Shown here piece after piece: positions 4,919 through 48,673 of a DNA stretch of 64,000 nt; within the stretch, counting starts at the first letter, position 1; each line of letters opens with the position of its first letter. Origin of the DNA: Psychroflexus sp. (lineage in GTDB: Bacteria > Bacteroidota > Bacteroidia > Flavobacteriales > Flavobacteriaceae); NCBI GenBank assembly GCA_030457805.1, contig JAKDUG010000001.1:30487-94486 (forward strand), written 5' to 3'. Both the position numbers and the translations under genes were made by a program. Under the pieces are notes generated by a model. The model was not told where the DNA came from. It searched no databases and was given only the letters and a program-made list of their open reading frames with translations.

Positions 4919-4919
4919 T

Positions 4920-6059: not shown

Positions 6060-6154
6060 AAATTTATATGATGTTTATTAAGATTGAATCTAAATGCAAA
6101 TATACAGTTTAAGCTCTTAAAAATGACGCTTTTAAAGCGATTTTAATAAACCCT

Positions 6155-6487
6155 TTAATAAAGCGCATAAGGGTCCCAAAAAACCTTTTTAAAACCTTGT
6201 ATCTCATCATCTTTAACAAGGTGACCTTCAGCCTCCAAAAGCTTCTGCATCTGATCAACATGGCCAAAGTGATGTTTTCCCGTTAAAACACCATTGCGAT
6301 TCACAACGCGATGTGCGGGAAGATCTGCATTGTTTTTTAAACAATTATTCATTGCATAGCCAACTGTTCTCGCGCTTTTAGGTGCGCCTATCACTTTTGC
6401 AATGGCGCCGTAGCTCGTCACTTTACCCTCTGGAATTTGACGGACAACAGCGTAAACTTTTTCGTAAAAATCTTCTGTTTTTTTCAT
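6155..6487 (-). CDS. MGMT family / alkyltransferase-like protein
   Basis: IPEGKVTSYG, ARTVG, LPAHRVVN: Ala at the catalytic Cys position of PCHRV, so ATL-like. Confidence 0.85.
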   Translation of the reverse strand: MKKTEDFYEKVYAVVRQIPEGKVTSYGAIAKVIGAPKSARTVGYAMNNCLKNNADLPAHRVVNRNGVLTGKHHFGHVDQMQKLLEAEGHLVKDDEIQGFKKVFWDPYALY

Positions 6488-7125
6488 CCGCCTTTATAAT
6501 AAATTCTCCACAAGGTAACGCATGCCAGAATCAGCATCAAGGCAGCCATAAAATAATTCGAATACTTTTTAAAACGCGTGGTGCGGTCTTCGATTTTTAT
6601 AAAAAAAATAATGTAAGCATAAAGCGTCACAAAGGTTCCGAGGGCGGCACTAAACGCAAAAAGAATAATGTTGAGCGTCTCAAACCTAAAGTCAAATTCG
6701 GATCCAAAAACTGTTGATAGAACAACAAAATATGGAATTGGAAAAACATTTAAAGTAGCGATCAGCAATCCGTTGAGAAAACTCCTGGAGGATTTTGATT
6801 TGTTAATATCATCTTTTGATTTACTGTGCTGCGCCGTAAATAAGAAATAGAGCATCATCAAAATCAAAATAACCAAACCTGTCCTGAGTAGCATCCCTTT
6901 AACATAAGGATGATCAAAAATATAAGAGGATAATAAAACAGCTACTGTCGCTTGAAGTAAAACAATAATACTCGCGCCAATAGCCATCATAAGTGCAGCT
7001 TTCTTACCGCGATTCAAACAGGTTTTGGCCACTGACATATTGATAAGCCCTGGCGGAATAACACCTGCCATTGCGGCGAGAAAAGTGTAGATAAAAACTT
7101 GAAGTTGTACCAAACTATCGTTCAA
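6484..7125 (-). CDS. LysE/RhtB family transporter
   Basis: IPPGLINMSV N-terminal motif, about 6 hydrophobic segments. Confidence 0.8.
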   Translation of the reverse strand: MNDSLVQLQVFIYTFLAAMAGVIPPGLINMSVAKTCLNRGKKAALMMAIGASIIVLLQATVAVLLSSYIFDHPYVKGMLLRTGLVILILMMLYFLFTAQHSKSKDDINKSKSSRSFLNGLLIATLNVFPIPYFVVLSTVFGSEFDFRFETLNIILFAFSAALGTFVTLYAYIIFFIKIEDRTTRFKKYSNYFMAALMLILACVTLWRIYYKGG

Positions 7126-7792
7126 AATTAAATTTCAAATAAGTAATTGCTTTCTGTTCTTTTAAATATTGTGATTCATAGAAAGTTTGGATACCAACGA
7201 CCTCTTGAGGTGCTTCGTGATTGACATAAATATCATGATGTGCATACATAATATTGTAAGATAAGCCTTCCAAAACACCAAGTGTATAACCGTGCATATA
7301 CTCACTATCAGTTTTTAAATGTACAATCCCATCTGGTTTTAGAATGTGTTTGTACTTTTTCAAAAAAGAAGGATTTGTCATGCGGTGTTTTCTTCTTTTC
7401 CACTTTATTTGAGGATCTGGAAAAGTAATCCAGATTTCGCTAATTTCATTCTCTTCAAAGATATGTGCGACAAGTTCTATTTGTGTTCTGATAAAGCACA
7501 CATTATCGAGCTTATCTTCAATTGCTGTCTTAGCTCCACGCCAAAAACGCGCTCCTTTGATATCAATACCTATAAAATTCTTGTCGGGATTTTGGCGTGC
7601 TAATTCAACAGAATATTCACCTTTACCACAGCCGAGCTCCAAAACAATTGGATTGTCATTCTTAAAAAAAGTTGACGCCCATTGTCCTCGGTATTTAAGT
7701 TTGTGCTCAACCACTTCTTCACGCGTTGGTTGCACAACATTTTCAAAGATTTCGTTTTCTTTAAAACGTTTTAATTTATTTTTACTCCCCAC
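7115..7792 (-). CDS. trmB: tRNA (guanine-N7)-methyltransferase
   Basis: LELGCGKGEY, GIDIKGAR, ITFPDPQIK, KTDS, QTFYE. Confidence 0.95.
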   Translation of the reverse strand: MGSKNKLKRFKENEIFENVVQPTREEVVEHKLKYRGQWASTFFKNDNPIVLELGCGKGEYSVELARQNPDKNFIGIDIKGARFWRGAKTAIEDKLDNVCFIRTQIELVAHIFEENEISEIWITFPDPQIKWKRRKHRMTNPSFLKKYKHILKPDGIVHLKTDSEYMHGYTLGVLEGLSYNIMYAHHDIYVNHEAPQEVVGIQTFYESQYLKEQKAITYLKFNFER

Positions 7793-33983: not shown

Positions 33984-34460
33984 ATGAGTAAAGTATCTTA
34001 TTATTCAGAAGAAGGTCTGAAAAAGCTAAAAGCTGAGTTAGACCAGTTAAGAGATGTCGAAAGGCCAAAAGCTTCACAAGCAATTGGCGAAGCACGTGAC
34101 AAGGGTGACTTGAGTGAAAATGCTGAATACGATGCTGCAAAAGAAGCACAAGGCATGCTTGAAATGAAAATTTCAAAATTAGAAGCGGTGGTTTCAAATG
34201 CGCGCGTTATTGATGAGTCACAACTTGATGTTTCTAAAGTTTTAATTCACTCCACAGTTAAATTAAAGAACACAAAAACAAAAAAGACGATGACTTATAA
34301 ATTAGTGGCACAAAGTGAAGCTGATTTAAAGTCGAATAAAATTTCTGTCGATTCCCCTATTGGCAAAGGTTTACTTGGAAAAGAAAAAGGCGAATTTGCT
34401 GAGATTAAAGTACCAAATGGTACACTTTCCTTTGAGGTTGTAGAAATATCACGTGACTAA
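33984..34460 (+). CDS. greA: Transcription elongation factor GreA
   Basis: GDLSENAEYDAAKE, ISVDSPIGKGLLG. Confidence 0.96.
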   Translation: MSKVSYYSEEGLKKLKAELDQLRDVERPKASQAIGEARDKGDLSENAEYDAAKEAQGMLEMKISKLEAVVSNARVIDESQLDVSKVLIHSTVKLKNTKTKKTMTYKLVAQSEADLKSNKISVDSPIGKGLLGKEKGEFAEIKVPNGTLSFEVVEISRD

Positions 34461-35206
34461 TTTAGTGTAAACCAACATCCTATATAAAAACATTCAATAG
34501 CTAAAGTGTCTGGCTTTTGCTGAAAAAATAGTGATCCAGTCGAGCGGACTTCACCTGTGGCTTTTTGCTGCACGTTTAATTGTGAGTCTCTGCTCGACCG
34601 GTAAAATATATCAGCTTTTTTAGCATCGAGATTTGTGCCATAAAAAGCACCAGATCCATCGTAAAAGCCCAATTGTAGCTTCTCTGTTTTCCCTGTGATA
34701 TAAAAATCTGAGATTCCTGAACTGACGATTCCTAAATCGGCAACATCAAGATCCATCTTAAAGTCGCCTGAATTTAAAGCATCATTGTCATTAAAGCTTT
34801 CAGATATCAAACGCATAAAAGGAAAGCTGAGCTGCCCAATACTGCTTATTGTATACTGACTTGAGTTGCGAATTTGCGCAATTGAAGTGACTGATAAAAC
34901 AATTTTTACTAAGGGTTTTGAATTTCCGAATGGACAGACATCATCTAGGCTCAACTCTAAAGTTCTGCCTGAGATATTGCGTTTTAGTTTCTCATAGGTT
35001 CTATCATTAGTGATCACTTTTATTTTATTTTCGGTTGATTGCTCTATTGAAACCTGAATATCTCGACGCACAATCAGGGTGTCGATCTCAGTGATATATT
35101 CCTCATAAACTTCTGTCAATTTAGAAGAATGCAAACAGTCTTTCGCCTCCTCTATTCCACAGGAAACAAATGCCATCACGCACAACAAAAGATATATTTT
35201 TCTCAT
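34457..35206 (-). CDS. DUF2807 / head GIN domain lipoprotein
   Basis: Lipobox VSC, beta-solenoid-like repeats (SSGISDFYITG, GSGAFYG). Confidence 0.72.
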   Translation of the reverse strand: MRKIYLLLCVMAFVSCGIEEAKDCLHSSKLTEVYEEYITEIDTLIVRRDIQVSIEQSTENKIKVITNDRTYEKLKRNISGRTLELSLDDVCPFGNSKPLVKIVLSVTSIAQIRNSSQYTISSIGQLSFPFMRLISESFNDNDALNSGDFKMDLDVADLGIVSSGISDFYITGKTEKLQLGFYDGSGAFYGTNLDAKKADIFYRSSRDSQLNVQQKATGEVRSTGSLFFQQKPDTLAIECFYIGCWFTLN

Positions 35207-36291
35207 ATTTTAAAACCTATTCCAAACTCGATTGCCTCTGCTTTTGCAAAATGTGTTTTCAACATTAAAGATCCAAAAAAGTGTTTCGAAAAATCATATT
35301 GCAAACCTATTCTCGTATAAAGTCGTTTGAGATAATTCACTGGGTAATAAACATAATAACCAATTTGTGTGGCGAAATTAAGTTCTCCCATATAGAAACG
35401 GTGGCCTGCAAAAAGGCCTATTCGCTTCCAATCATCATCCGCTGAGATGCCGTGATCTGGAAATGCAGCTTCTTGATATATATTGTGTTCTTTTGCCGCT
35501 TGACTTAAAAACAAATCGGCTCCAAATTGAATTGCATTTTTAAAGCTCAAAGGTTTCTCTGCCAAAGCCGTTGCCGTAAAAAATGGATATTTCTTAGCTT
35601 GTAACAAGCCCAAATCATTGAACCCAGAAGCCAAAATAAATTGATAATTCCACGGCTGGACTTCATATGCTGAAGGGCTTTCATCCTCTAATATCAACTT
35701 TTCGTTGGAGACATCATAACTAAAGCCTGCCCGCACGCCATAATTATTTGTTCCCGTATTTGGAGATTTCATTTTCCCATTTGAGTAATGCATCAAAAAT
35801 AGGCCAGCTTCAAAACGCAGGGGAAACTGTAAAATTTGTGGAGATTGATAAGTCAATTCAAATAAAATACTGGAAGTCAATCGTGATCCATAAGCCACAT
35901 TTTTCGGATTTTCAACTTTATCAAATGGATTCGTCACATAGCCTATACCCAAACCAACTTTGAGATTGAGTTGGCGTTCGAGCATATAAAATTTGTAATG
36001 CGGATGCAAACTGTAAATCTTGCCAAGCGCTTTTGCTCCCATATTCTGATAGACGAAAGTGACGCCAAAACTCGGGTAATTATAATCTTGATGCCATTCT
36101 TTTTCACCGCGACTCTGGTAATCGTAAGCCAATGAAAGACCATGTGTTGGCCCTTGAACAAGATGAGACATTTCTGGTTTGTGCCTGATGATTTTTCCGA
36201 AGAGATAATTTACATTAATGTGATCGAGCTTCACTTGCGCCTTTGTCGCACTAAGGCTAAAAAATAAGATTAGAATTAATATTTTTCTCAC
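35203..36291 (-). CDS. Acyloxyacyl hydrolase / PagL-like outer-membrane beta-barrel
   Basis: Signal peptide from GTG 36291, HYSNG (PagL-type HxSN) with PNTGTN, aromatic C-terminus. Confidence 0.72.
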   Translation of the reverse strand: MRKILILILFFSLSATKAQVKLDHINVNYLFGKIIRHKPEMSHLVQGPTHGLSLAYDYQSRGEKEWHQDYNYPSFGVTFVYQNMGAKALGKIYSLHPHYKFYMLERQLNLKVGLGIGYVTNPFDKVENPKNVAYGSRLTSSILFELTYQSPQILQFPLRFEAGLFLMHYSNGKMKSPNTGTNNYGVRAGFSYDVSNEKLILEDESPSAYEVQPWNYQFILASGFNDLGLLQAKKYPFFTATALAEKPLSFKNAIQFGADLFLSQAAKEHNIYQEAAFPDHGISADDDWKRIGLFAGHRFYMGELNFATQIGYYVYYPVNYLKRLYTRIGLQYDFSKHFFGSLMLKTHFAKAEAIEFGIGFKI

Positions 36292-36297
36292 GATCAC

Positions 36298-36335
36298 AAA
36301 AAAAAGCACAGTTGCCAAAACTATGCTTTTTTTTT
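36298..36335 (-). terminator. Terminator closing the rSAM/ABC cluster; overlaps the -7 box (TAGTTTTG) of the next gene
   Basis: Minus strand AAAAGCATAGTT-TTGGC-AACTGTGCTTTT plus U run; one G-U pair valid only on the minus strand. Confidence 0.7.
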
Positions 36336-36359: not shown

Positions 36360-37175
36360 CTAAACCTCTAAATCCGCAATAAGATCTTTAAATAGCTTAA
36401 TCATGTGAGGCTCAGCTTTGGCTGACATTTTTAAAATAGACTGTACATCAACTTGCGCTAAATGATCTGGATCACATTCATCAGTCAACACAGAAACAGC
36501 AATGACAGGAAGTTTTAAATGATTTGCAACAATGACTTCAGGCACTGTACTCATCCCAACTGCATCCGCCCCTATAATTTTCAAATAGCGATATTCAGCA
36601 CGTGTTTCAAGTTGAGGTCCCATCACAGAAGCATAAACACCTTTATGTAAAGTAATGTCATGGCGTTTGGCAATCGCTTCAAGCTTTTGACTCATTTTCT
36701 GATCATAAGGACAACTCATATCTACAAAACGTTCACCAGTTTTAGAGACACCTTTAAAAGCCAATGGCGATCCGCCAAGCAAATTTATATGATCATCAAT
36801 CAACATGATATCTCCTTTTTTGAAGTCTAAATTAATGGCGCCAGCTGCATTTGAAACCAATAGTTTTTTAATCCCCAAACGGTTCATGATCCGAACAGGA
36901 TAAGTCACATCTTGGAAATCATAACCTTCATAGAGGTGAAAACGCCCTTGCATGACAATGACTTTCTTCCCCTCTAACATTCCATAAATCAATTTCCCCT
37001 TGTGGAACTCGACTGTTGCCGTCGGGAAATGCGGAATATGGTTATAACTCACTTGCGCCAAAACCTCGACTTCTTCTGGAAGTTTACCTAAACCTGTTCC
37101 TAGAATAATGCCAACCTCAGGAGATTCAAATCCTTTCTCTCTTAAATAAGAGACTGTTTGTTCTACGTATGTCAT
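36360..37175 (-). CDS. punA: Purine-nucleoside phosphorylase (trimeric family)
   Basis: GIILGTGLG, QGRFHLYEG, VSNAAG, GPQLETRAE, GADAVGMSTVPE. Has TD where canonical PNP has TN. Confidence 0.9.
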   Translation of the reverse strand: MTYVEQTVSYLREKGFESPEVGIILGTGLGKLPEEVEVLAQVSYNHIPHFPTATVEFHKGKLIYGMLEGKKVIVMQGRFHLYEGYDFQDVTYPVRIMNRLGIKKLLVSNAAGAINLDFKKGDIMLIDDHINLLGGSPLAFKGVSKTGERFVDMSCPYDQKMSQKLEAIAKRHDITLHKGVYASVMGPQLETRAEYRYLKIIGADAVGMSTVPEVIVANHLKLPVIAVSVLTDECDPDHLAQVDVQSILKMSAKAEPHMIKLFKDLIADLEV

Positions 37176-37789
37176 TTGTGCTTTTTTAGTATTGTTTCAA
37201 AAATGGGGAGACCTTGAATATCTTCATAATAATCAACATCATTTCTCCGCTCTAAAATACTGATTTTTTCGGTTTTTAAGGCATGAATTGTCTCCATAAA
37301 AACGCTTGATGTGCTCCAAGCTTTCAATTGAAAAGCCGCTTTTTTTAATGTTTTCATGCCGAGCAAATAATAACCACCATCAGTAGCCGGGCCAATCACA
37401 AGATCGTGCGTGTTCAGTTTGTCAAAAGCCTCTTGAATGACACCTGCATCCAAATCATGAATATCGGTGCCAACAATAACGACTTTCTGAGCTCCAGCGG
37501 CAAAAGCAGAAGCAAAAGCATCTTGCATTTTCTGACCTAAATTCCCTTGCACTTGTTGTTTCTTCTCAAAAAAATCAGAAGACCACATATCATTTTGCCT
37601 CACTTCATCGGCATACCAAACTTGTCGAATGCTTTTGACATTTTTGACAACTTCTGCTGTGCGTTCTACTAAATACTTATAAATCTCTAGAGCCGCAGCA
37701 TCACCAACAGTTTTGGCCAAACGCGTTTTGCATTTCCCGAGTTCTGGATGTCGCGCAAAAATGAGCAATACGTTTTTCTCTTTAGTCAT
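37172..37789 (-). CDS. TIGR04282-family (arsenosugar/rSAM-associated) GT-A/CofC-like transferase
   Basis: IFARHPELGKCKTRLA, QGNLGQKM, IVGTDI, IGPATDGGYYLLG, WST, DVD. ATG 37789 preferred. Confidence 0.85.
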   Translation of the reverse strand: MTKEKNVLLIFARHPELGKCKTRLAKTVGDAAALEIYKYLVERTAEVVKNVKSIRQVWYADEVRQNDMWSSDFFEKKQQVQGNLGQKMQDAFASAFAAGAQKVVIVGTDIHDLDAGVIQEAFDKLNTHDLVIGPATDGGYYLLGMKTLKKAAFQLKAWSTSSVFMETIHALKTEKISILERRNDVDYYEDIQGLPIFETILKKHK

Positions 37790-38243
37790 AGACAGCTTCG
37801 GTTGTTGTGAGAAATTGCCCCCAATGGGAATTGTAAGCATGAACCTTCTGAGTAGGCAAACCAGACTTATTCACAAGTTGAAAACCCTGATCGGCCCATT
37901 GAAAAATGCCTCCGTAAAGATTTTTGAGTTGGCTATATCCAACTTTTTCAAGTTGATTCCCTATCCTTTCCGAACGCATCCCAAGTGAACAATAAAGAAC
38001 GAACTCGGTTCTTTTGGGAAAACGAATAATCAACTGCTGGATATCGAAGTTTTCAAAACCCACCCAAATAGCATTGGGTAAATGGCTGACGTCAAACTCA
38101 TTTTTCTCACGTGTATCTAAAAGAATGAAGTCGCTGTTTTGCGAGAGTTGCTTCTGCAAATCTTGAACAGAAAGATATGGGATTGAAGCTTTATTCTTTT
38201 GATCCAACAAATCCTTGATGGCTTGCAAATTAGATTTCGACAT
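37782..38243 (-). CDS. Single-domain rhodanese
   Basis: LLDTRE, EFDVSHLPNA, active-site loop YCSLGMRS, LYGGIFQW. Confidence 0.88.
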   Translation of the reverse strand: MSKSNLQAIKDLLDQKNKASIPYLSVQDLQKQLSQNSDFILLDTREKNEFDVSHLPNAIWVGFENFDIQQLIIRFPKRTEFVLYCSLGMRSERIGNQLEKVGYSQLKNLYGGIFQWADQGFQLVNKSGLPTQKVHAYNSHWGQFLTTTEAVYD

Positions 38244-38254
38244 GTGACAAAGAT

Positions 38255-39223
38255 TTAATGTGAAAGCTTTTGATGAGATTGATCTGTAGCCAGCACACCT
38301 TTTTTATCAAAAATAGCCTCTTTGTGGCATTTCATAAATTCATCGCAATACAAACATATATTTTTCAGATCAGCATTTTCAGCTTTGGCTTGCTCCTCAG
38401 AAACTCCTAAATGTTTTCCCATTTCCAAAGGCTTTCCTTCGTTGAGCATGCGGAAAACTAAATTTTCAGAAGCCCGCTCAAGCACATCGGCTACTTTTTC
38501 TTTCCGGGCATCTCCCATCGGGAAATGTGTACCAGGGCAACACGGATTGATGCGCCACAACTGGATACTGAATTCATTTGGAATGTCGCTATAACCGCCT
38601 AAAAAATTACGCGCACCAGAGAGGATATTACAAAAATTATGTTTGGGATCTTCCTTGTAAATATTATTTTTGAGCGCCTTGCCTCTCGCCCAATTCCCAC
38701 CGAGCCACATCTCTTCATTAGCGCCCCAAGATCCCCAACTCAAAGGATTTTCAGCAAGGTAATGTCCGCCTTCAATCAGTGGATCTTTTTCAGTCCCATT
38801 GACATCACAACTTTCAAAAATAGTAGCCAATTCATCGAGACGACTGCCTGCCTTTTTGTGATAGCGATCAATACTGGCAATATCAAAACGCCTCACTCCT
38901 TTTTCAATCAAGATTTGTAGTTTTTCTTTTGTGAGTAAATCGCCATTTGTCTGCAACATCACCTGCGTTTCCTCACCGTATTTTTCTTTAATTTTGTCTA
39001 AAATTGTGTAGAGTAATTTTAATTCTGAAAGCGGTTCGCCACCACTCAAAATCAAACGCTCAACGCGATCAGGCATATGATCGATAATAGCTAGACAATC
39101 CTGTTCGGAAATTCGTGCACCAAAAGGACTGGAATCATTATAGCAATGATCACAATCATCATTGCACAATTGTGTAAAAACCCAATAAAGAGACTCAACG
39201 TGATTAAAATCTTTTTTCATCAT
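38255..39223 (-). CDS. Radical SAM enzyme with a Cys-rich SPASM/twitch-like C-terminus, not ArsS
   Basis: CNDDCDHC (CxxxCxxC), LSGGEP, LQTNG, then C...CC...CLYC. ATG 39223 or 39220. Confidence 0.88.
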   Translation of the reverse strand: MMKKDFNHVESLYWVFTQLCNDDCDHCYNDSSPFGARISEQDCLAIIDHMPDRVERLILSGGEPLSELKLLYTILDKIKEKYGEETQVMLQTNGDLLTKEKLQILIEKGVRRFDIASIDRYHKKAGSRLDELATIFESCDVNGTEKDPLIEGGHYLAENPLSWGSWGANEEMWLGGNWARGKALKNNIYKEDPKHNFCNILSGARNFLGGYSDIPNEFSIQLWRINPCCPGTHFPMGDARKEKVADVLERASENLVFRMLNEGKPLEMGKHLGVSEEQAKAENADLKNICLYCDEFMKCHKEAIFDKKGVLATDQSHQKLSH

Positions 39224-39227
39224 TTGT

Positions 39228-39956
39228 TTATTTCGATTGCTGGATTTGCATCCAAAAATCAATTTCTTCTTTCACTCCTGATTGCGCATCCTGAATGAAT
39301 TCTGACTGACTCGTATATGTTTTTAAATAACCTTTATCAATTTTAGCGATTTGGTCACCGATAAGCAAGGCTTCTTTTAAATCATGTGTGACAAACAAAG
39401 CTGCAATGCCATAGGCTTTCATCAATTTCAAAAATAACTTTTGCATGGTTTCTCGCGTGTCAACATCAAGAGCGCCAAAAGGCTCATCGAGTAATAAAAC
39501 TTGGGGCTGAACAATGATGGCTCTTGCAAAAGCAACACGCTGTTTTTCGCCTCCAGACAATTGCTGTGGGAATTTAGAGGAATGTGCTGACAAATCAATT
39601 TCTTTTAAAATAGCTTTAACGCGCTTGTCGATTTCTGCAGCCTTTAATTGCTGCGCCTGCAATCCAAAAGCGATGTTGTCAAACACATTTAGATGTGGAA
39701 AAAGCAAGGCTTCCTGAAAGAGGTAAACAATATGTCGTGTATTCGGTTTTTGAGATATAATAGAAGTCTCATTCAAAAAGATGTTTCCTGTATCAGCATC
39801 TTCCAAACCAGCTATAATTTTGAGTAAACTGGTTTTGCCACTGCCAGATTTCCCTAAAATACTCATGACTTGATTGTCCTTTAACTCTAAATCAACAGCC
39901 GTGAGCACAGGTTTTTGTCCAAATCGTTTTGATATGTTTTGTAATTCTAAACGCAT
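39228..39956 (-). CDS. ABC importer ATPase, YnjD-like
   Basis: GKSGSGKT, LSGGE, LLDEPF, THD. Confidence 0.9.
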   Translation of the reverse strand: MRLELQNISKRFGQKPVLTAVDLELKDNQVMSILGKSGSGKTSLLKIIAGLEDADTGNIFLNETSIISQKPNTRHIVYLFQEALLFPHLNVFDNIAFGLQAQQLKAAEIDKRVKAILKEIDLSAHSSKFPQQLSGGEKQRVAFARAIIVQPQVLLLDEPFGALDVDTRETMQKLFLKLMKAYGIAALFVTHDLKEALLIGDQIAKIDKGYLKTYTSQSEFIQDAQSGVKEEIDFWMQIQQSK

Positions 39957-39965
39957 TCTTTTTAT

Positions 39966-40736
39966 TTAATGAATCAGGGTTCTTTTTAAGATAATTTTTT
40001 TGTTGAAAAACAGCAAAGTCATCGGCGGAATAACTAAAAGTAAACTCGCCAAAGCTGCTAAAAAAATATTGGCTTCATTGATAAAATTAAAAACAGATAA
40101 GGTTAAAGTTTTCACCTGCCCGCCACCAATCAGTTGTGTCAAACCATAATCAAACCAAGAAATCAAGAAACACTGAAAAAAGCACAAGCCTAAAACTGGT
40201 TTTGCCAAGGGAAAAATCACTTTTTTAAAACGAAACCATTCTGAAGAACCCAAGGTGATACTCAGTTCTTCATAATTTGAAATATGCCGTGTCCAAAAGC
40301 TGGATAAAATAATGAATCCAAACGGGAAGCAAATCAAAAATTGTGCGCTAACAACGCCAATAAAACTGGCATTTAATCCTATGACAACTGCAAAATAATG
40401 CCACAAAACGCCCAAGACAACAGGTGAAAGAATATATGGCAAGTACGCCAAACTGATATAATATTTCTTGTACCGCGAAGTAGAAACAGCTCTAGACAAT
40501 ATGCAACCCATTAAAGTTGAAAAAAAAGCGACACAAAGCGATACAACGATGGACAACCCCAAACTCTGCCTTAGTTCTGACTCTGTTGAAAACAATCTAA
40601 GCCAAGTCTGTCTATGAAAATTCTCAGGCAAAACATCTGGAAAAATCCAATGCTCACTAAAAGACAGAATAAGCAAAACTGCGACCGGCAAAAAAATAAC
40701 CGCAATCAAAAAGAAATGAACAATTCTTCTAAGCAT
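39966..40736 (-). CDS. ABC importer permease
   Basis: Hydrophobic; EAA-like EELSITLGSSEW loop. ATG 40736 overlaps the upstream stop. Confidence 0.85.
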   Translation of the reverse strand: MLRRIVHFFLIAVIFLPVAVLLILSFSEHWIFPDVLPENFHRQTWLRLFSTESELRQSLGLSIVVSLCVAFFSTLMGCILSRAVSTSRYKKYYISLAYLPYILSPVVLGVLWHYFAVVIGLNASFIGVVSAQFLICFPFGFIILSSFWTRHISNYEELSITLGSSEWFRFKKVIFPLAKPVLGLCFFQCFLISWFDYGLTQLIGGGQVKTLTLSVFNFINEANIFLAALASLLLVIPPMTLLFFNKKIILKRTLIH

Positions 40737-41598
40737 GAGTTTTCTTTTTAAAGAATTGAACAAAACGCGTCGACATCAAACTGATCAATAATAATACAAG
40801 AAATAAGTAAATGAGTGCCATCACATAAGCTTGTGGAATATCATGCAAATTAAAACGCTGTGCTTTATCGACAATCCGCGGGGTAATCATCTGCGGATTT
40901 TGGCGCCCTAAAAGCAAAGGCACTTCATAGCTACCCATCACGAAAATGATATAAAGCACGACTGTTGATTTTGATTTTTGCCATAATAATGCCAAGCTAA
41001 TCTTCCAAAATGCATGACGCGGTTTTGCTCCTAAACTCTGCGCGATCAATCCATAATCTTGAAGTCTTTCAGCATCGAAAATATTCTTGAGGAACAAGGT
41101 AAAGAAAGGAAAAACCAGCAAAACAGAAGTGAGCATAATGCCAATTCCGTAAGCGTCGTTCGTGAGTTCAGGAAAGCTTTCTATGTGGTCAATCCAACCA
41201 AATTGAAAACTGAGACGAGACAGAAATCCTGATTTTGAAAAGGTCTGCATGACATAAAAAGCCATGACAGTAGCTGGGAAACACAGAGGCAGAAAGAGCA
41301 AGCGATGAAACCACTTTTTCTGAAAATCATCAGTTAATTTTAAGACCAAAAAAAGCGCAATGCAAAAACTCAAAAACACACTGATGACAGCAATTAAAAA
41401 ACTAAACCCAATTGACTTCCACATATAGAAATCACGCAAAGCCTCTGACCAATATTTAAGCGTCAGCCCATCAGTTAGCAAACCTGTCAATCCTAAACTA
41501 TGTAACAAAGCATAAGTGAAACCAGCAAATGTTGGCACAACAATAAGTAGGACATAAATCAGCCTGAGGAATTTTGTCAATGAATTCGCTTTTCTCAC
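40729..41598 (-). CDS. ABC importer permease (YnjC-like half)
   Basis: Hydrophobic; AQSLGA loop, YEVPLLLG. Confidence 0.85.
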   Translation of the reverse strand: MRKANSLTKFLRLIYVLLIVVPTFAGFTYALLHSLGLTGLLTDGLTLKYWSEALRDFYMWKSIGFSFLIAVISVFLSFCIALFLVLKLTDDFQKKWFHRLLFLPLCFPATVMAFYVMQTFSKSGFLSRLSFQFGWIDHIESFPELTNDAYGIGIMLTSVLLVFPFFTLFLKNIFDAERLQDYGLIAQSLGAKPRHAFWKISLALLWQKSKSTVVLYIIFVMGSYEVPLLLGRQNPQMITPRIVDKAQRFNLHDIPQAYVMALIYLFLVLLLISLMSTRFVQFFKKKTHA

Positions 41599-42815
41599 TG
41601 TTGAAGTATTTTTTCTTGAAAATCATCAGCCAACCTAATCATGTATTCGGGAGCCAATTCTTGCAAGGCTTTTTTTTGGATCACTGATCGCGGTGGAGCG
41701 TTGGTCCGCATTCTTGTATTTTTCCATTTTTCCTGCATGGTTTCAGATAACTTTTCTGGACTCAAAACACTGCCGTCTCCCCAAACTTCAGGTTGCATTT
41801 TATGCAGTTGTGCTGCTGGTGAAATCATTTCATTGATGACCAACATGGCTGAATATTGATGCGCAGATTTTCGAGGAATTCCGAGGTAATGAGAATTCTG
41901 AATACTGCCAAAATCTGGTACATAGGCGCGGGCATCCTTTGTAAAAAGTCCTTCACTAATTTTGTTGTCCACTTCGGCATCGTTATTACTCATCGTAAAC
42001 CACAATTCGCCAGCGGCAAAAAGTTGATGCATCTGGGCCACGTCTTCAGGAAAAACCTCACCTTTTCGCCATAAATAAGATTTTAATTTATTGAGATAAG
42101 CAAACAAGTCTGCACTGAATTTTTCATATTTATCGGCATCAAAATCACCAGCAAGCTCTTCTTGCCCAGCTATATCAATCAGTAAGCTTTTCATAAAAGT
42201 CAATCCTGTAAAGTGATGATCAAAGGTGAACTTCCCTGGATGAGACTTTACAAAAGTCAATAATTCACTGCGTGTTTGCGGCAGATCTTGAACTTGATCA
42301 GAATTATAAATCAGTGTCATTTGGACATTTCCCCAAGGCATTTCATATCCTTCAATATCTTGTTGGAAATCTTTTCCAATAAAAGGATTATCAAAATCTA
42401 TCAATTTTGCATGAGGCGCTTTATCAATCCACGGACCAAACAAAGCATCAATTTGGCGCAACTGATAAAAGGTTTCGCCATTGATCCAAACCAAATCAAT
42501 TTGACTTTGATCAACGTCGGCCTGAATTTCATTCATTAAACTTTGAACAAGCGTATTGCCTTGTCCACTGACAATCTCAAGTTCTATATTGTATTTCTCT
42601 TTGACATGTGGTTTGATATAGTTTTGCATATAGGCGTTGATTTTCGGATCGCCTTTCCACATCATCATGCTGAGTTTTTGAGATTGTCCCTTTTCGACAA
42701 CCTGATCCCAACTCAACTGAGATAAATCAATGGCTTGAGGTTCCCGATCGGCTTGGCAAGCGACTAAGGAAAAGAGCAGAATTAAACGCGAAATATATTT
42801 TAGAATTCTCATCAT
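41595..42815 (-). CDS. ynjB: ABC substrate-binding lipoprotein, YnjB-like
   Basis: Lipobox LVAC, DLVWINGETF, PWGNVQ, FTGLTFMK, NSHYLGIP, VWGD, PEL pattern. Confidence 0.8.
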   Translation of the reverse strand: MMRILKYISRLILLFSLVACQADREPQAIDLSQLSWDQVVEKGQSQKLSMMMWKGDPKINAYMQNYIKPHVKEKYNIELEIVSGQGNTLVQSLMNEIQADVDQSQIDLVWINGETFYQLRQIDALFGPWIDKAPHAKLIDFDNPFIGKDFQQDIEGYEMPWGNVQMTLIYNSDQVQDLPQTRSELLTFVKSHPGKFTFDHHFTGLTFMKSLLIDIAGQEELAGDFDADKYEKFSADLFAYLNKLKSYLWRKGEVFPEDVAQMHQLFAAGELWFTMSNNDAEVDNKISEGLFTKDARAYVPDFGSIQNSHYLGIPRKSAHQYSAMLVINEMISPAAQLHKMQPEVWGDGSVLSPEKLSETMQEKWKNTRMRTNAPPRSVIQKKALQELAPEYMIRLADDFQEKILQQ

Positions 42816-42975
42816 CTATAAAGTTAGAAGTTTAGACCCAATTGAAATTGTTTATGAAAAATGGAGACTTAGTTGTTTTTGCACAGGCTAAATATAGCGT
42901 GCAAGAACACGATTAAATCTATTTTCAAGTCAAAATCAACAGGAAATAAACTTAAAAGAACAACTATAAACGGAT

Positions 42976-43644
42976 TTAAAGAGGAGAGCCTTTATTGTAA
43001 AAAGTCGCTTGATAAACTTTTGATCTTGGTAGAAATTGATCAATACTTGGATGCTGAGCAACGGCAATCATCGCAGATAAAAGCCGAATGATATCGCCTT
43101 TCAAGTCAGCTTGCTCAGATAAAACCAAAGGGACGTCTGACTTGAGATCAATATCAGAGAGTGTTTCTAAAAATGTATAATTTTCAGATTGATCTTTAAG
43201 CAAATTAGTGAATTCATCAAGTAGGGAAGAAGATTGCCAAGGGAGTTGAAGAAATTGCTCCTTCACAAAAGAAGAGCGATGCAAACCCCACAAATAAAAA
43301 CCGCCATCATGAGAAGGGCCAAAACACATGTCATGGGTTTTGAGACGATCAACTGTTTCATAAAGGTGATTTAAGTCGAGATGTGGAGAATCATTTCCGA
43401 TAGAAATAACGCTGTCGTATTTTGCTTCAAAAATAGCTTCAATAGCATTCAGGTAACGTTCAGCAAAGGTCTCACCGACTTGTTTTGACTCATCATAGCA
43501 AAAACAATGCAAACCAGAAGAAGCCAGTTGTTGTTTGATACGCTGGTTTTGGCGTCGAAAAAACTGTATACGCCCTTGCCCTAAATTCTTTTTTTCAACT
43601 TCAGGATTCTGGTAGAAAAATAAGATTGCAGTTGATGGCAGCAT
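42976..43644 (-). CDS. DUF2064 protein (second CofC-like GT-A paralog)
   Basis: GETFAER, IGNDSPHL, GPSHDGGFYLWG, LPWQ, LSDID; lacks the N-terminal KTRL. Confidence 0.8.
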   Translation of the reverse strand: MLPSTAILFFYQNPEVEKKNLGQGRIQFFRRQNQRIKQQLASSGLHCFCYDESKQVGETFAERYLNAIEAIFEAKYDSVISIGNDSPHLDLNHLYETVDRLKTHDMCFGPSHDGGFYLWGLHRSSFVKEQFLQLPWQSSSLLDEFTNLLKDQSENYTFLETLSDIDLKSDVPLVLSEQADLKGDIIRLLSAMIAVAQHPSIDQFLPRSKVYQATFYNKGSPL

Positions 43645-44232: not shown

Positions 44233-45564
44233 ATGAGAAAGGTGACCTTAAATCAAGGAATTTTAAAGTATTTTTTACTATCCATTCTTATCGTTTCACT
44301 ATCAAGCACTTATGCGCAAGAAAGTGAAGCGGAGGAATCAGCAGAAAGCACAGAAGCTGCGATTCCTGGAGCTGACCCTGCGGAGGGTAAAGACTTATTC
44401 AACTCACTATGTGCTGCGTGTCACAAACCCTACAAGGATGGCGTAGGTCCTGCGCTACATGGCGTTACTGACCATAGAGACATGGAGTGGCTGTACAAAT
44501 GGATAGCAAACAGTCAAGATCTTATTGCTTCAGGTGATCCTGAAGCTGTTGAGATCTACAATGAATGGAACAAGGTTTCGATGAATGCCTTCCCGCAATT
44601 GAGCGAAGAAGACATCGACAACATCATATCTTATGTAGAGCAACCAAAACCAGAACCTAAAAAGAAAACAGCTGATACAGCAACTGCAAGTGCAGACGGC
44701 GGTGGCTCTTCTGGTGTTTCAAATGAAGTGATCATTGGTGCTTTAGCATTTATCTTATTAATGCTAGCGGTGATTCTTTATTTAGTCAACAAAACACTGC
44801 GTAAATTTGCAGCTGCTAATGGTGTTGAACTCGATATAGATAAAAATAAGGAAGCAAGAAAGCCAATTTGGGTTGCCTTTGCTGAAAACCAATTTTTAAT
44901 ATTAGTTACTGTGGGTGTCATGCTCATTGTCGTCACATGGTTTGGCTACGGTGCATTAATGAATATCGGTATTGATAAAGGCTATGAGCCAATTCAGCCA
45001 ATTCACTACTCACACAGAATTCACGCAGGTGATAACCAGATAGAATGTAAGTACTGCCACTCTTCGGCACGAACTTCAAAACAATCCGGAATTCCTTCTT
45101 TGAACGCATGTATGAACTGTCACCAACAGATTGGTGAGGTTGCTGAAGAAACTGCCACGGAAGAATACTCAAAAGAATTTTACGATGAGGAGATCTTAAA
45201 ACTGTACGATGCTGCAGGTTGGGATCCATCATCACAATCTTATACTGGCGAAACAAAACCAGTGAAGTGGGTAAGAATTCACAACTTACCAGATTTTGCC
45301 TATTTCAACCACTCTCAGCACGTGAGTGTTGGACAGATTGACTGTCAGACATGTCATGGGCCGGTTGAAGAAATGGAAATCATGTACCAAGATGCGCCAT
45401 TGACTATGGGTTGGTGTATCGAGTGTCACAGAGAAACAAACGTGAAAATGGAAGGCAACGAGTACTATGAGAAAATTCATGAGGAACTTGCCAAGAAATA
45501 TGGTGTCGAAAAAGTTACCGCTGCACAAATGGGTGCAATCGAATGTGGTAAGTGTCACTATTAA
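44233..45564 (+). CDS. actA: Alternative complex III multiheme cytochrome c (monoheme + pentaheme)
   Basis: Six CxxCH motifs: CAACH, CKYCH, CMNCH, CQTCH, CIECH, CGKCH. Confidence 0.93.
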   Translation: MRKVTLNQGILKYFLLSILIVSLSSTYAQESEAEESAESTEAAIPGADPAEGKDLFNSLCAACHKPYKDGVGPALHGVTDHRDMEWLYKWIANSQDLIASGDPEAVEIYNEWNKVSMNAFPQLSEEDIDNIISYVEQPKPEPKKKTADTATASADGGGSSGVSNEVIIGALAFILLMLAVILYLVNKTLRKFAAANGVELDIDKNKEARKPIWVAFAENQFLILVTVGVMLIVVTWFGYGALMNIGIDKGYEPIQPIHYSHRIHAGDNQIECKYCHSSARTSKQSGIPSLNACMNCHQQIGEVAEETATEEYSKEFYDEEILKLYDAAGWDPSSQSYTGETKPVKWVRIHNLPDFAYFNHSQHVSVGQIDCQTCHGPVEEMEIMYQDAPLTMGWCIECHRETNVKMEGNEYYEKIHEELAKKYGVEKVTAAQMGAIECGKCHY

Positions 45565-45592
45565 TATTAATGAAGAAAATTTGAATCGAGAT

Positions 45593-48500
45593 ATGTCATC
45601 AGAAAAAAAATATTGGAAAAGTGAAGCACAACTTAAAGGGACTGATCCTGCGTTGAAATCACTTGAAGAGAACGAATTTGTAGAGCATATTCCTACAGAT
45701 GAATTCTTGGGTGATAAAGAAAAGCTTGAGGACTCTAAGACGACACGAAGAGACTTCTTGAAATACGTTGGATTTAGTACAGCTGCAGCATCTCTTGCTG
45801 CTTGTGAAGGTCCAGTTATCAAATCTATTCCTTATGTCGTTCAGCCAGACAGACTCGTTCCTGGTGTTGCTGATTACTACGCGACAACAATTGCGAATGG
45901 CTATGATTTTGCAAGTGTTCTCGTGAAGACCAGAGAAGGACGCCCAATTAAGATTGACAACAACACTAGTGCGAAAGAATTTACTGCAGGAAAAGCAAGA
46001 GTACACGCTTCAGTCCTAGACTTATATGACATCAAGCGTCTGCAGAATCCACAGATTGAAGGCCGAGATGCCACCTGGTCTGAATTTGATGAAAAAGTAG
46101 GGATCGAACTCAAGTTGGCATCGGAGAAAAAGATCGTTCTACTGACACAGACATTTGCAAGCCCATCAGTAGATAGGTTAATCAATGAATTCAAAGAAAA
46201 ATATCCAAATACAGAACAGATCGTTTATGACTCTGTTTCTGAAGAAGCTGCTTTAAAAGCTTTCCAAAGTAAACACGGTTACAAAGCACTTCCTAATTAC
46301 GACTTCAGTCAAGCTGATACAATTGTCAGTGTTGGTGCCGATTTCTTAGGCGACTGGCAGGGTGGTGGTTTCGACGCAAGCTATGCAAGAGGCCGTGAAC
46401 CACAGAACGGAAAGATGTCTAGGCACGTTCAGTTCGAAGCAAACATGACTTTATCAGGTGGTAATGCCGATAAACGTGTGGCGACTAAACCTTCAATGCA
46501 AAAGCAAGTTTTAGTTGAAATATACAATCAGGTTGTCTCAAGAGCTGGTTCGACTGATTTAAATAAAAAAACACAAAAGGCTGTTGATGCCGCTGTGAAG
46601 TCACTAAAGAAAGGAGGCTCTCAATCAGTTGTTGTCACTGGCATTCAGGATGAAGGTGCACAACGCATGGCGCTTGAAATCAACGCAGCACTTTCAAGTA
46701 CAATTATCGATACTGATAACGCAAGAATGATTCGCCAAGGCGAGAATTCAAAAGTTGATAACCTAATTAAAGAAATGCAATCAGGTCAGGTTGGCGTTTT
46801 AATGACTGCTGGAATTAATCCTCTTTACAGTCTTCCAAATGCAGATGCATTTAGTGAAGCCATGGAAAATGTTGATGCAACTATTGCCTTCAGCATGAAA
46901 ATGGATGAAACAGCAAAACAAGCCAAATATGTGGCGGCAACACCTCACTTCCTCGAATCTTGGGGTGATGTTCAGTTGACTAAAAACACATTTAGCTTAG
47001 TACAACCGACTATTCAGCCTCTTTTTGACACACGTCAATTTGAAGCTTGTCTTTTAAACTTCGTTGCTGAGTCAACAGACTACTATGGGTTTATCAAAGA
47101 AACATTTGCAAAGAAATTCGATGGCTTGAAATGGAATCAAAGTCTCCATGATGGCACCTTTACATACGAAGACGCACAAAACATAAATGCAACTGATGCA
47201 ATGCCATCGGCCTTTAATGCAAGTGCAGCTGCACGCCAATTAACGGCGGGCTCAGGTGAAGGTCTAGAACTGACTTTATATACAAAAACAGCAATGGGTG
47301 ACGGGCAGCAAGCCAACAACCCATGGTTGCAAGAAATGCCAGACCCAATTACAAGAACATCTTGGGACAACTACATTACAGTTGCTAAAAGTGATGCTGA
47401 AAGCTTAGGTCTTAAAAATTACAATGTCGATGACGGCGCTTTAAATGGAGACTATGTCAATATTACTTTAGGTGATGTTTCACTTGAAAAAGTTCCTGCT
47501 TTTATTCAACCAGGGCAAGCACCAGGTTCAATCGGACTTGCACTTGGCTATGGAAAAACAGAATCTATTCAAGAGGAAATGCAAGTTGGTATCAACGCAT
47601 TTAAATTATACAAAGATTTCCAGAGTACACAAGATGTCTCATTGACGAAGACAAATGGTATTCATGAATTTGCCTGTGTACAGTTACACCACACAATGAT
47701 GGGCCGCCGTGATATTGTCAAAGAAACAACTTTAGAAATCTTCAACACAAGTGATAAAGACGCATGGAATAAAACACCTCAAGTCTCTTTAAACCACAAA
47801 GAGACTGATGTAACCTCTCCGGATGTTAACTTATGGGAAGAGTTTGACCGTGATATCGGACACCACTTCAACCTTTCTATTGACTTGAACTCATGTACGG
47901 GTTGTGGCGCGTGTGTGATTGCTTGCCACAGTGAAAACAACGTTCCTGTTGTTGGAAAGCATGAAGTGCGAAAAAGTAGGGATATGCACTGGTTGAGAAT
48001 TGACAGATACTACTCATCTGAAGATACTTTACAAGGTGACTATGATAAGAAGAACGACATGTCTGGCTTAAGCGAGTCTATCAGCCAATTTGATGAATTA
48101 GAAGAACCTTCAGAAACAGATGTTCAGGTTATTTTCCAACCTGTAATGTGTCAGCATTGTAATCACGCTCCTTGTGAAACTGTATGTCCTGTTGCAGCAA
48201 CAGCACACAGTAGACAAGGTCAAAACCACATGACTTATAACAGATGTGTGGGAACGCGTTACTGCGCTAACAACTGTCCTTATAAAGTCAGACGTTTCAA
48301 CTGGTTCCAATACTCACAAGATGACGAATTTGACTACCACATGAACAATGACTTAGGCCGTATGGTCTTAAACCCAGATGTGACTGTGAGATCAAGAGGC
48401 GTCATGGAGAAATGCTCATTGTGTATCCAAAAAACGCAAAAAACAATTTTGGATGCCAAGCGAGACGGCAGAGTGATTGAGGATGGAGAATTCCATACAG

Positions 48501-48673
48501 CTTGTTCTGCAGCGTGTGATAAAGGAGCAATGGTCTTTGGTGATGTCAATGACAAAGAGAGTAAAGTACTCGAGAAAAGTGAAGATGATAGAATGTATCA
48601 CCTTCTTGAATACTTAGGTACAAAGCCGAATGTGATGTATCAAACTAAAGTAAGAAACACAACAGAAGCTTAA
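45593..48673 (+). CDS. actB: Alternative complex III subunit B (molybdopterin-oxidoreductase-like + Fe-S domain)
   Basis: MSSEKKYWKS start, Tat motif TRRDFLK, CTGCGAC, CQHCNHAPCETVCP, CVGTRYCANNCP, EKCSLC. Confidence 0.94.
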   Translation: MSSEKKYWKSEAQLKGTDPALKSLEENEFVEHIPTDEFLGDKEKLEDSKTTRRDFLKYVGFSTAAASLAACEGPVIKSIPYVVQPDRLVPGVADYYATTIANGYDFASVLVKTREGRPIKIDNNTSAKEFTAGKARVHASVLDLYDIKRLQNPQIEGRDATWSEFDEKVGIELKLASEKKIVLLTQTFASPSVDRLINEFKEKYPNTEQIVYDSVSEEAALKAFQSKHGYKALPNYDFSQADTIVSVGADFLGDWQGGGFDASYARGREPQNGKMSRHVQFEANMTLSGGNADKRVATKPSMQKQVLVEIYNQVVSRAGSTDLNKKTQKAVDAAVKSLKKGGSQSVVVTGIQDEGAQRMALEINAALSSTIIDTDNARMIRQGENSKVDNLIKEMQSGQVGVLMTAGINPLYSLPNADAFSEAMENVDATIAFSMKMDETAKQAKYVAATPHFLESWGDVQLTKNTFSLVQPTIQPLFDTRQFEACLLNFVAESTDYYGFIKETFAKKFDGLKWNQSLHDGTFTYEDAQNINATDAMPSAFNASAAARQLTAGSGEGLELTLYTKTAMGDGQQANNPWLQEMPDPITRTSWDNYITVAKSDAESLGLKNYNVDDGALNGDYVNITLGDVSLEKVPAFIQPGQAPGSIGLALGYGKTESIQEEMQVGINAFKLYKDFQSTQDVSLTKTNGIHEFACVQLHHTMMGRRDIVKETTLEIFNTSDKDAWNKTPQVSLNHKETDVTSPDVNLWEEFDRDIGHHFNLSIDLNSCTGCGACVIACHSENNVPVVGKHEVRKSRDMHWLRIDRYYSSEDTLQGDYDKKNDMSGLSESISQFDELEEPSETDVQVIFQPVMCQHCNHAPCETVCPVAATAHSRQGQNHMTYNRCVGTRYCANNCPYKVRRFNWFQYSQDDEFDYHMNNDLGRMVLNPDVTVRSRGVMEKCSLCIQKTQKTILDAKRDGRVIEDGEFHTACSAACDKGAMVFGDVNDKESKVLEKSEDDRMYHLLEYLGTKPNVMYQTKVRNTTEA

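Follow-up and report, generated by a model that had tools for sequence, protein, structure and literature searches.

Results and Discussion

A nine-gene unit joins a YnjBCD-type importer and an orphan radical SAM enzyme to arsenosugar-type genes

We analysed a 64,000 nt stretch of Psychroflexus sp. DNA (GenBank assembly GCA_030457805.1, contig JAKDUG010000001.1, positions 30,487 to 94,486; hereafter the window, numbered from its first letter), in which the ORF (open reading frame) listing and profile searches place nine co-oriented genes on the minus strand at 36360-43644. The unit combines an ABC (ATP-binding cassette) importer of the YnjBCD type and an orphan radical SAM (S-adenosylmethionine) enzyme, hereafter rSAM, with genes whose order is common to arsenosugar operons, and in a species of the same genus the position of the importer and rSAM is held by TIGR04169, ArsS and ArsM. 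The features, in the direction of the unit, are as follows.

42976-43644, minus strand: DUF2064 paralog (DUF2064a), CofC/MobA-like transferase, first gene of the unit (PF09837 69.5 bits, cut-off 25.8; TIGR04282 94.8 bits, cut-off 134)
41595-42815, minus strand: YnjB-subfamily periplasmic substrate-binding lipoprotein (SBP; NF008633 359 bits, cut-off 203)
40729-41598, minus strand: ABC permease 1 (PF00528; weak matches to ThiP, ModB, CysT and PhnU-type proteins)
39966-40763, minus strand: ABC permease 2 (PF00528; best weak match PhnV, 69.9 bits)
39228-39956, minus strand: ABC ATPase (PF00005 116.6 bits; similar to PotA, PhnT2, CysA and WtpC)
38255-39223, minus strand: rSAM, orphan radical SAM enzyme with a probable auxiliary Fe-S cluster (CNDDCDHC motif)
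37782-38243, minus strand: single-domain rhodanese of the 'rhoda_near_glyco' family (NF045521 179.5 bits, cut-off 145)
37172-37840, minus strand: TIGR04282-family transferase (DUF2064, CofC-like; TIGR04282 203 bits, cut-off 134; PF09837 106.5 bits; CofC 30.8 bits)
36360-37175, minus strand: purine nucleoside phosphorylase (PNP), PunA type (PRK08202 338 bits, cut-off 218; TIGR01700 301.3 bits, cut-off 293.35)
about 36298-36335, minus strand: intrinsic-terminator-like hairpin 3' of the PNP gene (A-run, stem, U-run)

By these scores the SBP belongs to the YnjB subfamily (the match covers residues 10-402), the gene at 37172-37840 to TIGR04282, the rhodanese, encoded directly upstream of it, to NF045521, and the phosphorylase to PunA. 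DUF2064a is a member of DUF2064 that falls below the TIGR04282 cut-off and matches only the C-terminal two thirds of that model; its counterparts score 65-110 bits against TIGR04282 in all relatives and make up a paralog group of their own. In the translation, the active-site loop of the rhodanese reads CSLGMRS and is of the sulfurtransferase type. Our literature search found DUF2064 undescribed, and TIGR04282 mentioned only in passing.

The genes from the SBP to the PNP are tightly packed, with consecutive gaps of -4, -35, +9, +4, +11, -59 and -4 nt between the longest ORFs, the last of these being a 4 nt overlap of the PNP start with the TIGR04282 stop. The two large overlaps (-35 and -59 nt) are probably due to over-long start calls. 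Between DUF2064a and the SBP gene lies a 160 nt spacer. A reading made earlier from the sequence only had counted eight co-oriented genes, seven of them, from the SBP onward, overlapping or within about 11 nt of each other; the co-orientation and the spacing (-59 to +11 nt) stood, whereas the counts had to be raised to nine and eight. The hairpin that closes the unit is strong (-18.5 kcal/mol, z = -4.84; none of 200 shuffled sequences folded equally well), although, with an A-run 5' and a U-run 3' of the stem, it looks bidirectional rather than strand-specific as had been proposed.

The importer and rSAM occupy the site of TIGR04169-ArsS-ArsM in a congener

In the congener that lacks rSAM (G278), the gene order is SPOR-like, DUF2064a, TIGR04169 (AhpD-like, 185 bits), ArsS (447 bits), AsSugarArsM, rhodanese, TIGR04282 and PNP. 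Its flanks are orthologous to those of the window, with 82% identity on the GreA side and 71-74% on the side of alternative complex III. The SBP, both permeases, the ATPase and rSAM of the window fill the exact slot of TIGR04169-ArsS-ArsM, and the rhodanese ortholog stands directly after ArsM in the congener, matching its position in the window. DUF2064a heads the congener's ArsS operon as well (L091, 11268-11942), as it does the SusC/D variants described below. The closest relatives, records of Psychroflexus halocasei, have the arrangement of the window plus a TonB-dependent receptor. Positional replacement of TIGR04169-ArsS-ArsM by an importer and rSAM is well supported. The comparison of orthologous sites thereby lends strong support to the headline of the sequence-only reading, that of an arsenosugar-like neighbourhood rebuilt around a different radical SAM enzyme and a YnjBCD-type importer.

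Compared with the canonical arsenosugar set (ArsM, ArsS, TIGR04169, TIGR04282, TIGR04283 and NF045521), the window has the back-end order of DUF2064 paralog, rhodanese, TIGR04282 and PNP in common, and its radical SAM enzyme has the matching operon position, which in the congener is also the same chromosomal site. The window differs in adding an ABC importer, in lacking ArsS, ArsM, TIGR04169 and TIGR04283, and in having a radical SAM enzyme unrelated to ArsS beyond the core. In the known ArsS reaction, dimethylarsenite, DMAs(III), receives the 5'-deoxyadenosyl moiety of SAM and becomes 5'-deoxy-5'-dimethylarsinoyl-adenosine (PMC13598754).

These absences hold for the whole genome, a 2.4 Mb assembly estimated to be 100% complete. 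Profile searches of the genome detected no ArsS (the best TIGR04167 match, on another contig, scored 32.5 bits against a cut-off of 300), no TIGR04283 (best 62 bits against a cut-off of 182, with no match at E <= 1e-35) and no AsSugarArsM (NF038099, 400 bits or more), for which the best tblastn match was a generic methyltransferase with 29% identity over 110 aa; TIGR04169 and DUF547 were absent genome-wide too. The earlier remark that ArsS, ArsM and TIGR04283 are missing from the window therefore extends to the genome. An ortholog of the TonB receptor found with the cassette in relatives was likewise not detected in this genome, and the 160 nt spacer between DUF2064a and the SBP gene shows no convincing scar of a receptor deletion. 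With neither the receptor nor TIGR04283, the end product should differ from that of the relatives, or synthesis should stop earlier; the system in this genome is reduced and its pathway truncated. A fatty-acid hydroxylase 53% identical to that of the Aquimarina arsenosugar cluster is encoded away from the locus (G000:C5:5326-6195).

We read the locus as a module-swapped arsenosugar-type operon, in which a non-orthologous, import-fed front end (importer plus rSAM) has been fitted to a back end that was kept, and we give this reading somewhat less than an even chance.

The radical SAM enzyme is not ArsS

rSAM scored 20 bits against TIGR04167, for which the cut-off is 300 bits and ArsS proteins of relatives reach 437-455 bits. 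BLASTP aligned rSAM and ArsS with 32 bits over 50 aa, the common stretch being the core from CX3CX2C to GGxP. Pfam gave only Radical_SAM and Fer4_12 for rSAM, with no DUF3641, a domain found with 188 bits in ArsS from Aquimarina algicola (L014), and no NCBIfam family, SPASM and twitch models included, exceeded its cut-off. The cluster motif is formed by C20, C24 and C27, and in the family (34 sequences, down to 31% identity) C198, C228, C290 and C293 are also invariant; these four extra cysteines are enough for one auxiliary [4Fe-4S] cluster. The family is narrow, with 24 representative clusters at E <= 1e-30 among 1.84 billion representatives, and identity to the window protein ranges from 63 to 90% across the 80 Bacteroidota loci that we retrieved.

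For structure prediction with AlphaFold2, an alignment of 12 sequences gave a pLDDT of 63.5 and an uninformative fold search, and was replaced by one of 34 sequences, which gave a model with a pLDDT of 89.3 and a pTM of 0.90. The best solved folds for this model were EpeE, BtrN, SpeY and viperin, with TM scores of about 0.6 or below, and searching rSAM against the sequences of the Protein Data Bank (PDB) returned only generic matches of 20-26 bits within the N-terminal 100 residues. The predicted fold is of the auxiliary-cluster radical SAM class, from which no specific function is derivable. Like the twitch/SPASM enzymes BtrN, EpeE/YydG and SpeY, modelled rSAM has a partial TIM barrel followed by a C-terminal region, in its case with four invariant cysteines. 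It differs from them in the cysteine spacing (C198, C228/C229, C290 and C293), in a Trp/Gly-rich conserved segment that has no named counterpart, and in having no gene for a peptide or aminocyclitol substrate nearby.

This fold class bears on a different account of the locus, to which we assign a minor though appreciable likelihood, well below an even one. What is imported would already be a riboside, or a nucleoside modified at the 5' position (algal arsenosugars and adenosyl derivatives are examples), and rSAM would be a twitch-type, hydrogen-abstracting remodeller that oxidizes, reduces, demethylates or cleaves it before PNP, or a hydrolase plus kinase, and then the DUF2064 enzymes act. The locus would thus serve salvage, and no new carbon-heteroatom bond would be made. 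The four extra cysteines and the best folds (BtrN, EpeE, SpeY and CteB, all of auxiliary-cluster, hydrogen-abstracting enzymes) speak for this account, although the fold similarity is modest (TM about 0.6), and the replacement of ArsS and ArsM at one site, together with the near-exclusion described next, is simpler if rSAM supplies the ArsS step.

ArsS and rSAM nearly exclude each other in two families

A random sample of Flavobacteriaceae contained ArsS in 233 of 301 genomes (77%), made up of 2/6 rSAM-positive and 231/295 rSAM-negative genomes, and among the Flavobacteriaceae genomes with rSAM loci ArsS was present in 9/27. In the corresponding sample of Saprospiraceae, 76 of 121 genomes (63%) had ArsS: one of the 15 with rSAM, compared with 75 of the 106 without. 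The two random samples pooled gave ArsS in three of 21 rSAM-positive genomes. By Fisher tests, which ignore shared ancestry, p was 2.7e-6 for the Flavobacteriaceae locus genomes set against the rSAM-negative genomes of the sample, 2.4e-6 for Saprospiraceae and 1e-8 for the pooled samples. AsSugarArsM tracked ArsS, being absent from all tested rSAM genomes without ArsS.

TIGR04282 followed both enzymes. It exceeded its cut-off in 56 of the 57 rSAM genomes checked (TIGR04283 in 40/57), and among ArsS-negative Flavobacteriaceae it was found in 4/4 rSAM-positive compared with 10/64 rSAM-negative genomes. In Saprospiraceae it was present in all 90 genomes with ArsS or rSAM compared with 15/31 with neither. 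At 105 of 121 genomes (87%), TIGR04282 is so common in Saprospiraceae that its co-occurrence there says little alone, and we dropped it as standalone evidence. The data show near-mutual exclusion of ArsS and rSAM in two families, both nested in TIGR04282-positive genomes, as would be expected if, within a shared pathway, one set of genes took the place of another with the same task.

As a separate observation, ArsS scored far above its cut-off in the 77% of Flavobacteriaceae and 63% of Saprospiraceae genomes that carry it, and both families are non-photosynthetic. The arsenosugar-named gene set is close to a family-wide trait in both.

Gene neighbourhoods in relatives

Relatives of the locus were found in 386 species genomes. 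In the 80 loci kept, all from Bacteroidota, we mapped the window proteins and clustered all ORFs, which gave the following recurrent features.

59-70 of 80 loci: SBP, permease, permease, ATPase and rSAM
57 of 80 loci: TonB-dependent receptor of about 995 aa upstream of the SBP
26 of 80 loci, across orders: DUF2064 paralog at the head of the unit
19-21 of 80 loci: two proteins of about 212-216 aa between ATPase and rSAM
14-16 of 80 loci, Flavobacteriaceae only: rhodanese, TIGR04282 and PNP downstream
about 7 of 80 loci: small ArsM-like methyltransferase directly before rSAM

Within the importer, permease 1 was kept in 63/80, permease 2 in 62/80 and the ATPase in 70/80 loci. PNP follows rSAM in 15-16/80, and in L051 and L053 the TIGR04282 gene is itself part of the cassette. 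The ArsM-like methyltransferase (cluster 12; PRK11873 173-198 bits) mirrors the pairing of ArsM with ArsS. The pair of 212-216 aa proteins, encoded for example at L013:5843-6484 and 6523-7167 and at L018:5970-6614 and 6589-7233, gave no Pfam or NCBIfam match and is not present in the window genome. In Aquimarina algicola the cassette is nested within a full arsenosugar cluster, in the order ArsS, DUF2064a, TonB receptor, importer, rSAM, rhodanese, TIGR04282, PNP, AsSugarArsM (583 bits), DUF547, fatty-acid hydroxylase, DUF547 and TIGR04283. The points on which the sequence-only reading had staked itself thus came out in its favour: rSAM is not ArsS, no arsS, arsM or TIGR04283 gene lies elsewhere in the genome, and the combination of rSAM with a YnjBCD-type importer, TIGR04282, PNP and rhodanese, which it had proposed to look for in other neighbourhoods, recurs in other genomes.

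A second type of cassette was found in five loci (L100-L104, from G051, G214, G319, G155 and G247, respectively). It consists of DUF2064a, SusC, SusD, a YnjB-type SBP about 39% identical to that of the window, permeases, ATPase and an IU-nucleoside hydrolase, followed in four of the five loci by an APH-type kinase and in L100 by a patatin-like lipase. In L102, L103 and L104 rSAM comes after the kinase, and in L104 rhodanese, TIGR04169, ArsS and ArsM follow. Two of the genomes with this cassette, G051 and G214, are ArsS-negative, rSAM-negative and TIGR04282-positive. Two others with the same profile, G342 and G314, have only DUF2064a, SusC, SusD and a secreted hydrolase-like lipoprotein, whose nucleoside-hydrolase-like N-terminal motif was read by eye.

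Some genomes carry more than one rSAM copy. The cassette of L102 ends with a tandem pair of rSAM paralogs (4912-6817) that are 53-54% identical to the window rSAM, and a third copy in the same genome adjoins rhodanese-TIGR04282-PNP. A second copy in a Saprospiraceae genome (G042:C10:14682-15424) has internal stops (one TAG and two TGA) and is probably a pseudogene.

Among the contexts of distant rSAM homologs, five contigs were retrieved, of which four were too short. The informative one, an unrelated metagenome contig (L106), encodes a 39%-identical rSAM after a hydrolase, DUF547 and an APH kinase. The rSAM family is thus repeatedly tied to enzymes that lead from a nucleoside to ribose-1-phosphate, either PNP or a nucleoside hydrolase plus APH-type kinase. 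These are the same two routes by which salvage of 5'-methylthioadenosine (MTA) and 5'-deoxyadenosine, through MtnP or through MtnN plus MtnK, converts a 5'-modified adenosine into a 5-modified ribose-1-phosphate. The enzymes differ, however: the PNP of the window is a PunA-type inosine/guanosine phosphorylase and not MtnP (93.8 bits against a cut-off of 274.85), the hydrolase linked to rSAM is of the IU-nucleoside-hydrolase family and not MtnN, and no methionine-salvage genes lie downstream.

Several of these neighbourhoods speak for salvage of a ready-made riboside: the SusC/D-type cassettes bring a nucleoside hydrolase and kinase, in G051 and G214 without rSAM, those of G342 and G314 are reduced to DUF2064a, SusC, SusD and the lipoprotein, and some operons hold both ArsS and rSAM. 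This coexistence, the cassettes without rSAM and the fold resembling hydrogen-abstracting enzymes make riboside salvage the main rival to the module swap. On the other hand, a hydrolase and a kinase are both missing from the window-type cassette, whose SBP shares only about 39% identity with its SusC/D-type counterpart; the two types of cassette may import different ligands.

The back-end genes are maintained

Compared with P. halocasei, the ratio of non-synonymous to synonymous substitution rates (dN/dS) was 0.05-0.17 for eight of the nine genes, with 0.046 for rSAM, 0.049 for PNP and about 0.15-0.17 for TIGR04282 and DUF2064a, all of these values being approximate since dS was near saturation throughout. 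For the rhodanese dS was saturated, and the proportions of non-synonymous and synonymous differences were pN 0.28 and pS 0.75. All nine genes are under purifying selection and maintained, and we therefore rejected the reading of a decaying remnant. The PNP is the only one in the genome, a single tblastn match having been found genome-wide, and is thus a housekeeping enzyme as well.

These results bear on whether an independent uptake operon for a scarce nutrient of another kind (a phosphonate, say, or the precursor of a cofactor, or a form of sulfur or selenium) was inserted into an old arsenosugar operon, with rhodanese, TIGR04282 and PNP as leftovers. In about 45 of the 80 loci, mostly from Saprospiraceae and Cytophagales, the TonB receptor-ABC-rSAM cassette indeed stands apart from TIGR04282, PNP and rhodanese; the permeases and ATPase have similarity to transporters of phosphonate, sulfate, molybdate, thiamine and polyamines; the genome has no second PNP; and it lacks TIGR04283 and DUF547. 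Such an insertion nevertheless seems improbable. In 26/80 loci, from different orders, the first gene of the cassette is the DUF2064 paralog. TIGR04282 lies within the cassette in L051 and L053 and is present in 56/57 rSAM genomes, genomes with rSAM selectively lack ArsS and ArsM in two families, overlaps and gaps of 4-11 nt join rSAM to the downstream genes, and in the lineage of the window purifying selection acts on rhodanese, TIGR04282 and DUF2064a.

The importer, the E. coli ynj locus and the imported element

The SBP is 33% identical to E. coli YnjB over 348 aa (E = 5e-57). A sequence search of the PDB gave no solved homolog of the SBP, and a literature search found no substrate for YnjBCD. 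In E. coli K-12 (L112, 1833401-1841403) the gene order is ydjX-ydjY-ydjZ-ynjA-ynjB-ynjC-ynjD-ynjE, which bears out the earlier statement that ynjBCD adjoins the rhodanese gene ynjE. The transporter is thus flanked by a rhodanese, as in the window, and the AhpD-like ynjA precedes ynjB, as TIGR04169 does in ArsS operons. The E. coli locus differs from the window in having one fused permease and a three-domain rhodanese, and in lacking rSAM, DUF2064 and PNP; the likeness of YnjA and YnjE to the present proteins is at the level of fold only. The parts of the ydj-ynj region, namely two DedA proteins, a ferredoxin-type protein, an AhpD-like protein, YnjBCD and a rhodanese, recall those of ArsS-type operons.

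Loci for anaerobic heme use (ChuA/HutA and ChuW/HutW) likewise combine a receptor and an ABC importer with a radical SAM enzyme, ChuW being a HemN-like methyltransferase. The relatives of the window follow the same logic of TonB receptor, ABC importer and a cytoplasmic radical SAM enzyme that processes the cargo. In contrast with ChuW, rSAM has no HemN-like similarity, and the window has no receptor.

The sulfurtransferase-type loop of the rhodanese, its weak matches to selenoprotein rhodaneses, and the E. coli operon of an AhpD-like protein, YnjBCD and the sulfurtransferase YnjE raise the question of the element. Selenium or sulfur rather than arsenic would be involved if an oxyanion or organo-chalcogen were imported, carried by the rhodanese as a perselenide or persulfide, and used by rSAM to make a ribose derivative containing selenium or sulfur. 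Only the element would differ, and rSAM might act by adenosylation or by remodelling. TIGR04167, TIGR04282 and TIGR04283 were, we presume, first described as 'selenodomain-associated'. We regard this choice of element as unlikely, in that the cassettes of relatives are embedded among genes that match arsenic models strongly (ArsS 437-455 bits, AsSugarArsM 553-583 bits), an ArsM-like methyltransferase adjoins rSAM in several loci, and no selD, selenoprotein or selenium-specific genes were seen in the examined loci.

Flanking genes and regulatory features

The unit is flanked by unrelated housekeeping genes, GreA, PagL-like and DUF2807 genes on one side and the SPOR-like gene and alternative complex III on the other. 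Two further co-oriented genes lie beyond the hairpin, at 34457-36318 on the same strand; one product is an outer-membrane protein of 371 aa resembling PagL (PF09411), the other belongs to DUF2807. Their occurrence after PNP is confined to the window and the two P. halocasei records (L011 and L012), and the congener with ArsS does not have them at this place. Divergent from the unit, at 44233-48673, are genes for a multi-haem cytochrome c and Fe-S subunits, probably of alternative complex III, whose site is conserved in the congener; they seem to serve ordinary housekeeping.

A promoter scan gave 23 sites compared with 21.8 expected from shuffled sequence, that is, no excess, and no riboswitch or other cis-RNA was detected within the cassette in the window and eight related loci. 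The one match, a cobalamin riboswitch scoring 95 bits, lies some 2 kb downstream of rSAM in Neolewinella (L073:11036-11204) and probably has nothing to do with the cassette.

A proposed import-fed pathway and its implications

On the module-swap reading, the importer would take up a ready-made heteroatom compound. The leading candidate is a pre-methylated arsenical such as dimethylarsenate, favoured by the lack of an ArsM-type methyltransferase in the window genome. By analogy with ArsS, we infer that rSAM would couple the imported compound to the 5'-deoxyadenosyl group of SAM. PNP would then strip the adenine to leave a 5-substituted ribose-1-phosphate, and the nucleotidyltransferase-like DUF2064 and TIGR04282 proteins would activate or transfer the ribose, with the rhodanese perhaps supplying persulfide or reducing chemistry. 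This scheme of import, adenosylation, depurination and transfer is plausible and would fit the gene contexts, including the link of rSAM to PNP or to hydrolase plus kinase.

Several observations weigh against it. The nearest folds of rSAM (BtrN, EpeE and SpeY) belong to hydrogen-abstracting auxiliary-cluster enzymes and not to known adenosylating enzymes, and what rSAM has in common with ArsS is confined to the CX3CX2C-to-GGxP core, DUF3641 being absent. Several relatives (L014, L017 and L104) have ArsS and rSAM together in a single operon, which shows that the two are not simply redundant. The SusC/D-type cassettes of G051 and G214, with closely similar SBPs (66-70% identity), have neither enzyme, so the molecule imported there may already be a riboside and rSAM an accessory. 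Cassettes of Saprospiraceae and Cytophagales are not beside the back-end genes, the exclusion statistics are not corrected for common descent, TIGR04282 is widespread in Saprospiraceae, and the position of PNP, as the sole genomic copy, may partly reflect its housekeeping role. Arsenic as the element would follow from annotation transferred from cyanobacterial ArsS and ArsM. That the rSAM family is a second, independently evolved adenosylating enzyme that forms carbon-heteroatom bonds, acting on a compound scavenged by a dedicated importer, is a tentative proposal that we think less probable than its being wrong.

The cassette was found undescribed in our literature search; what is new is the swap at an orthologous site and the statistics of ArsS/rSAM exclusion in two families. 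If the rSAM family is such a second adenosylating enzyme, Bacteroidota would have interchangeable front ends for one ribose-based pathway, one that makes the substrate (ArsM plus ArsS) and others that import it, through an importer with rSAM or an importer with hydrolase and kinase. Replacing arsenite methylation with an importing front end suggests that the cell wants the product, and would fit poorly with pure detoxification. Many marine and saline bacteria would then actively take up organo-arsenic or a similar metalloid compound to build a cell component and not only to detoxify it, which would change the view of how marine and saline heterotrophs cycle arsenic and related elements. The locus also gives a testable setting for three long-orphan families, the YnjBCD transporters, the DUF2064/TIGR04282 proteins and the narrow rSAM family, in which the swapped modules form a natural experiment and may guide the choice of the first substrates to try.

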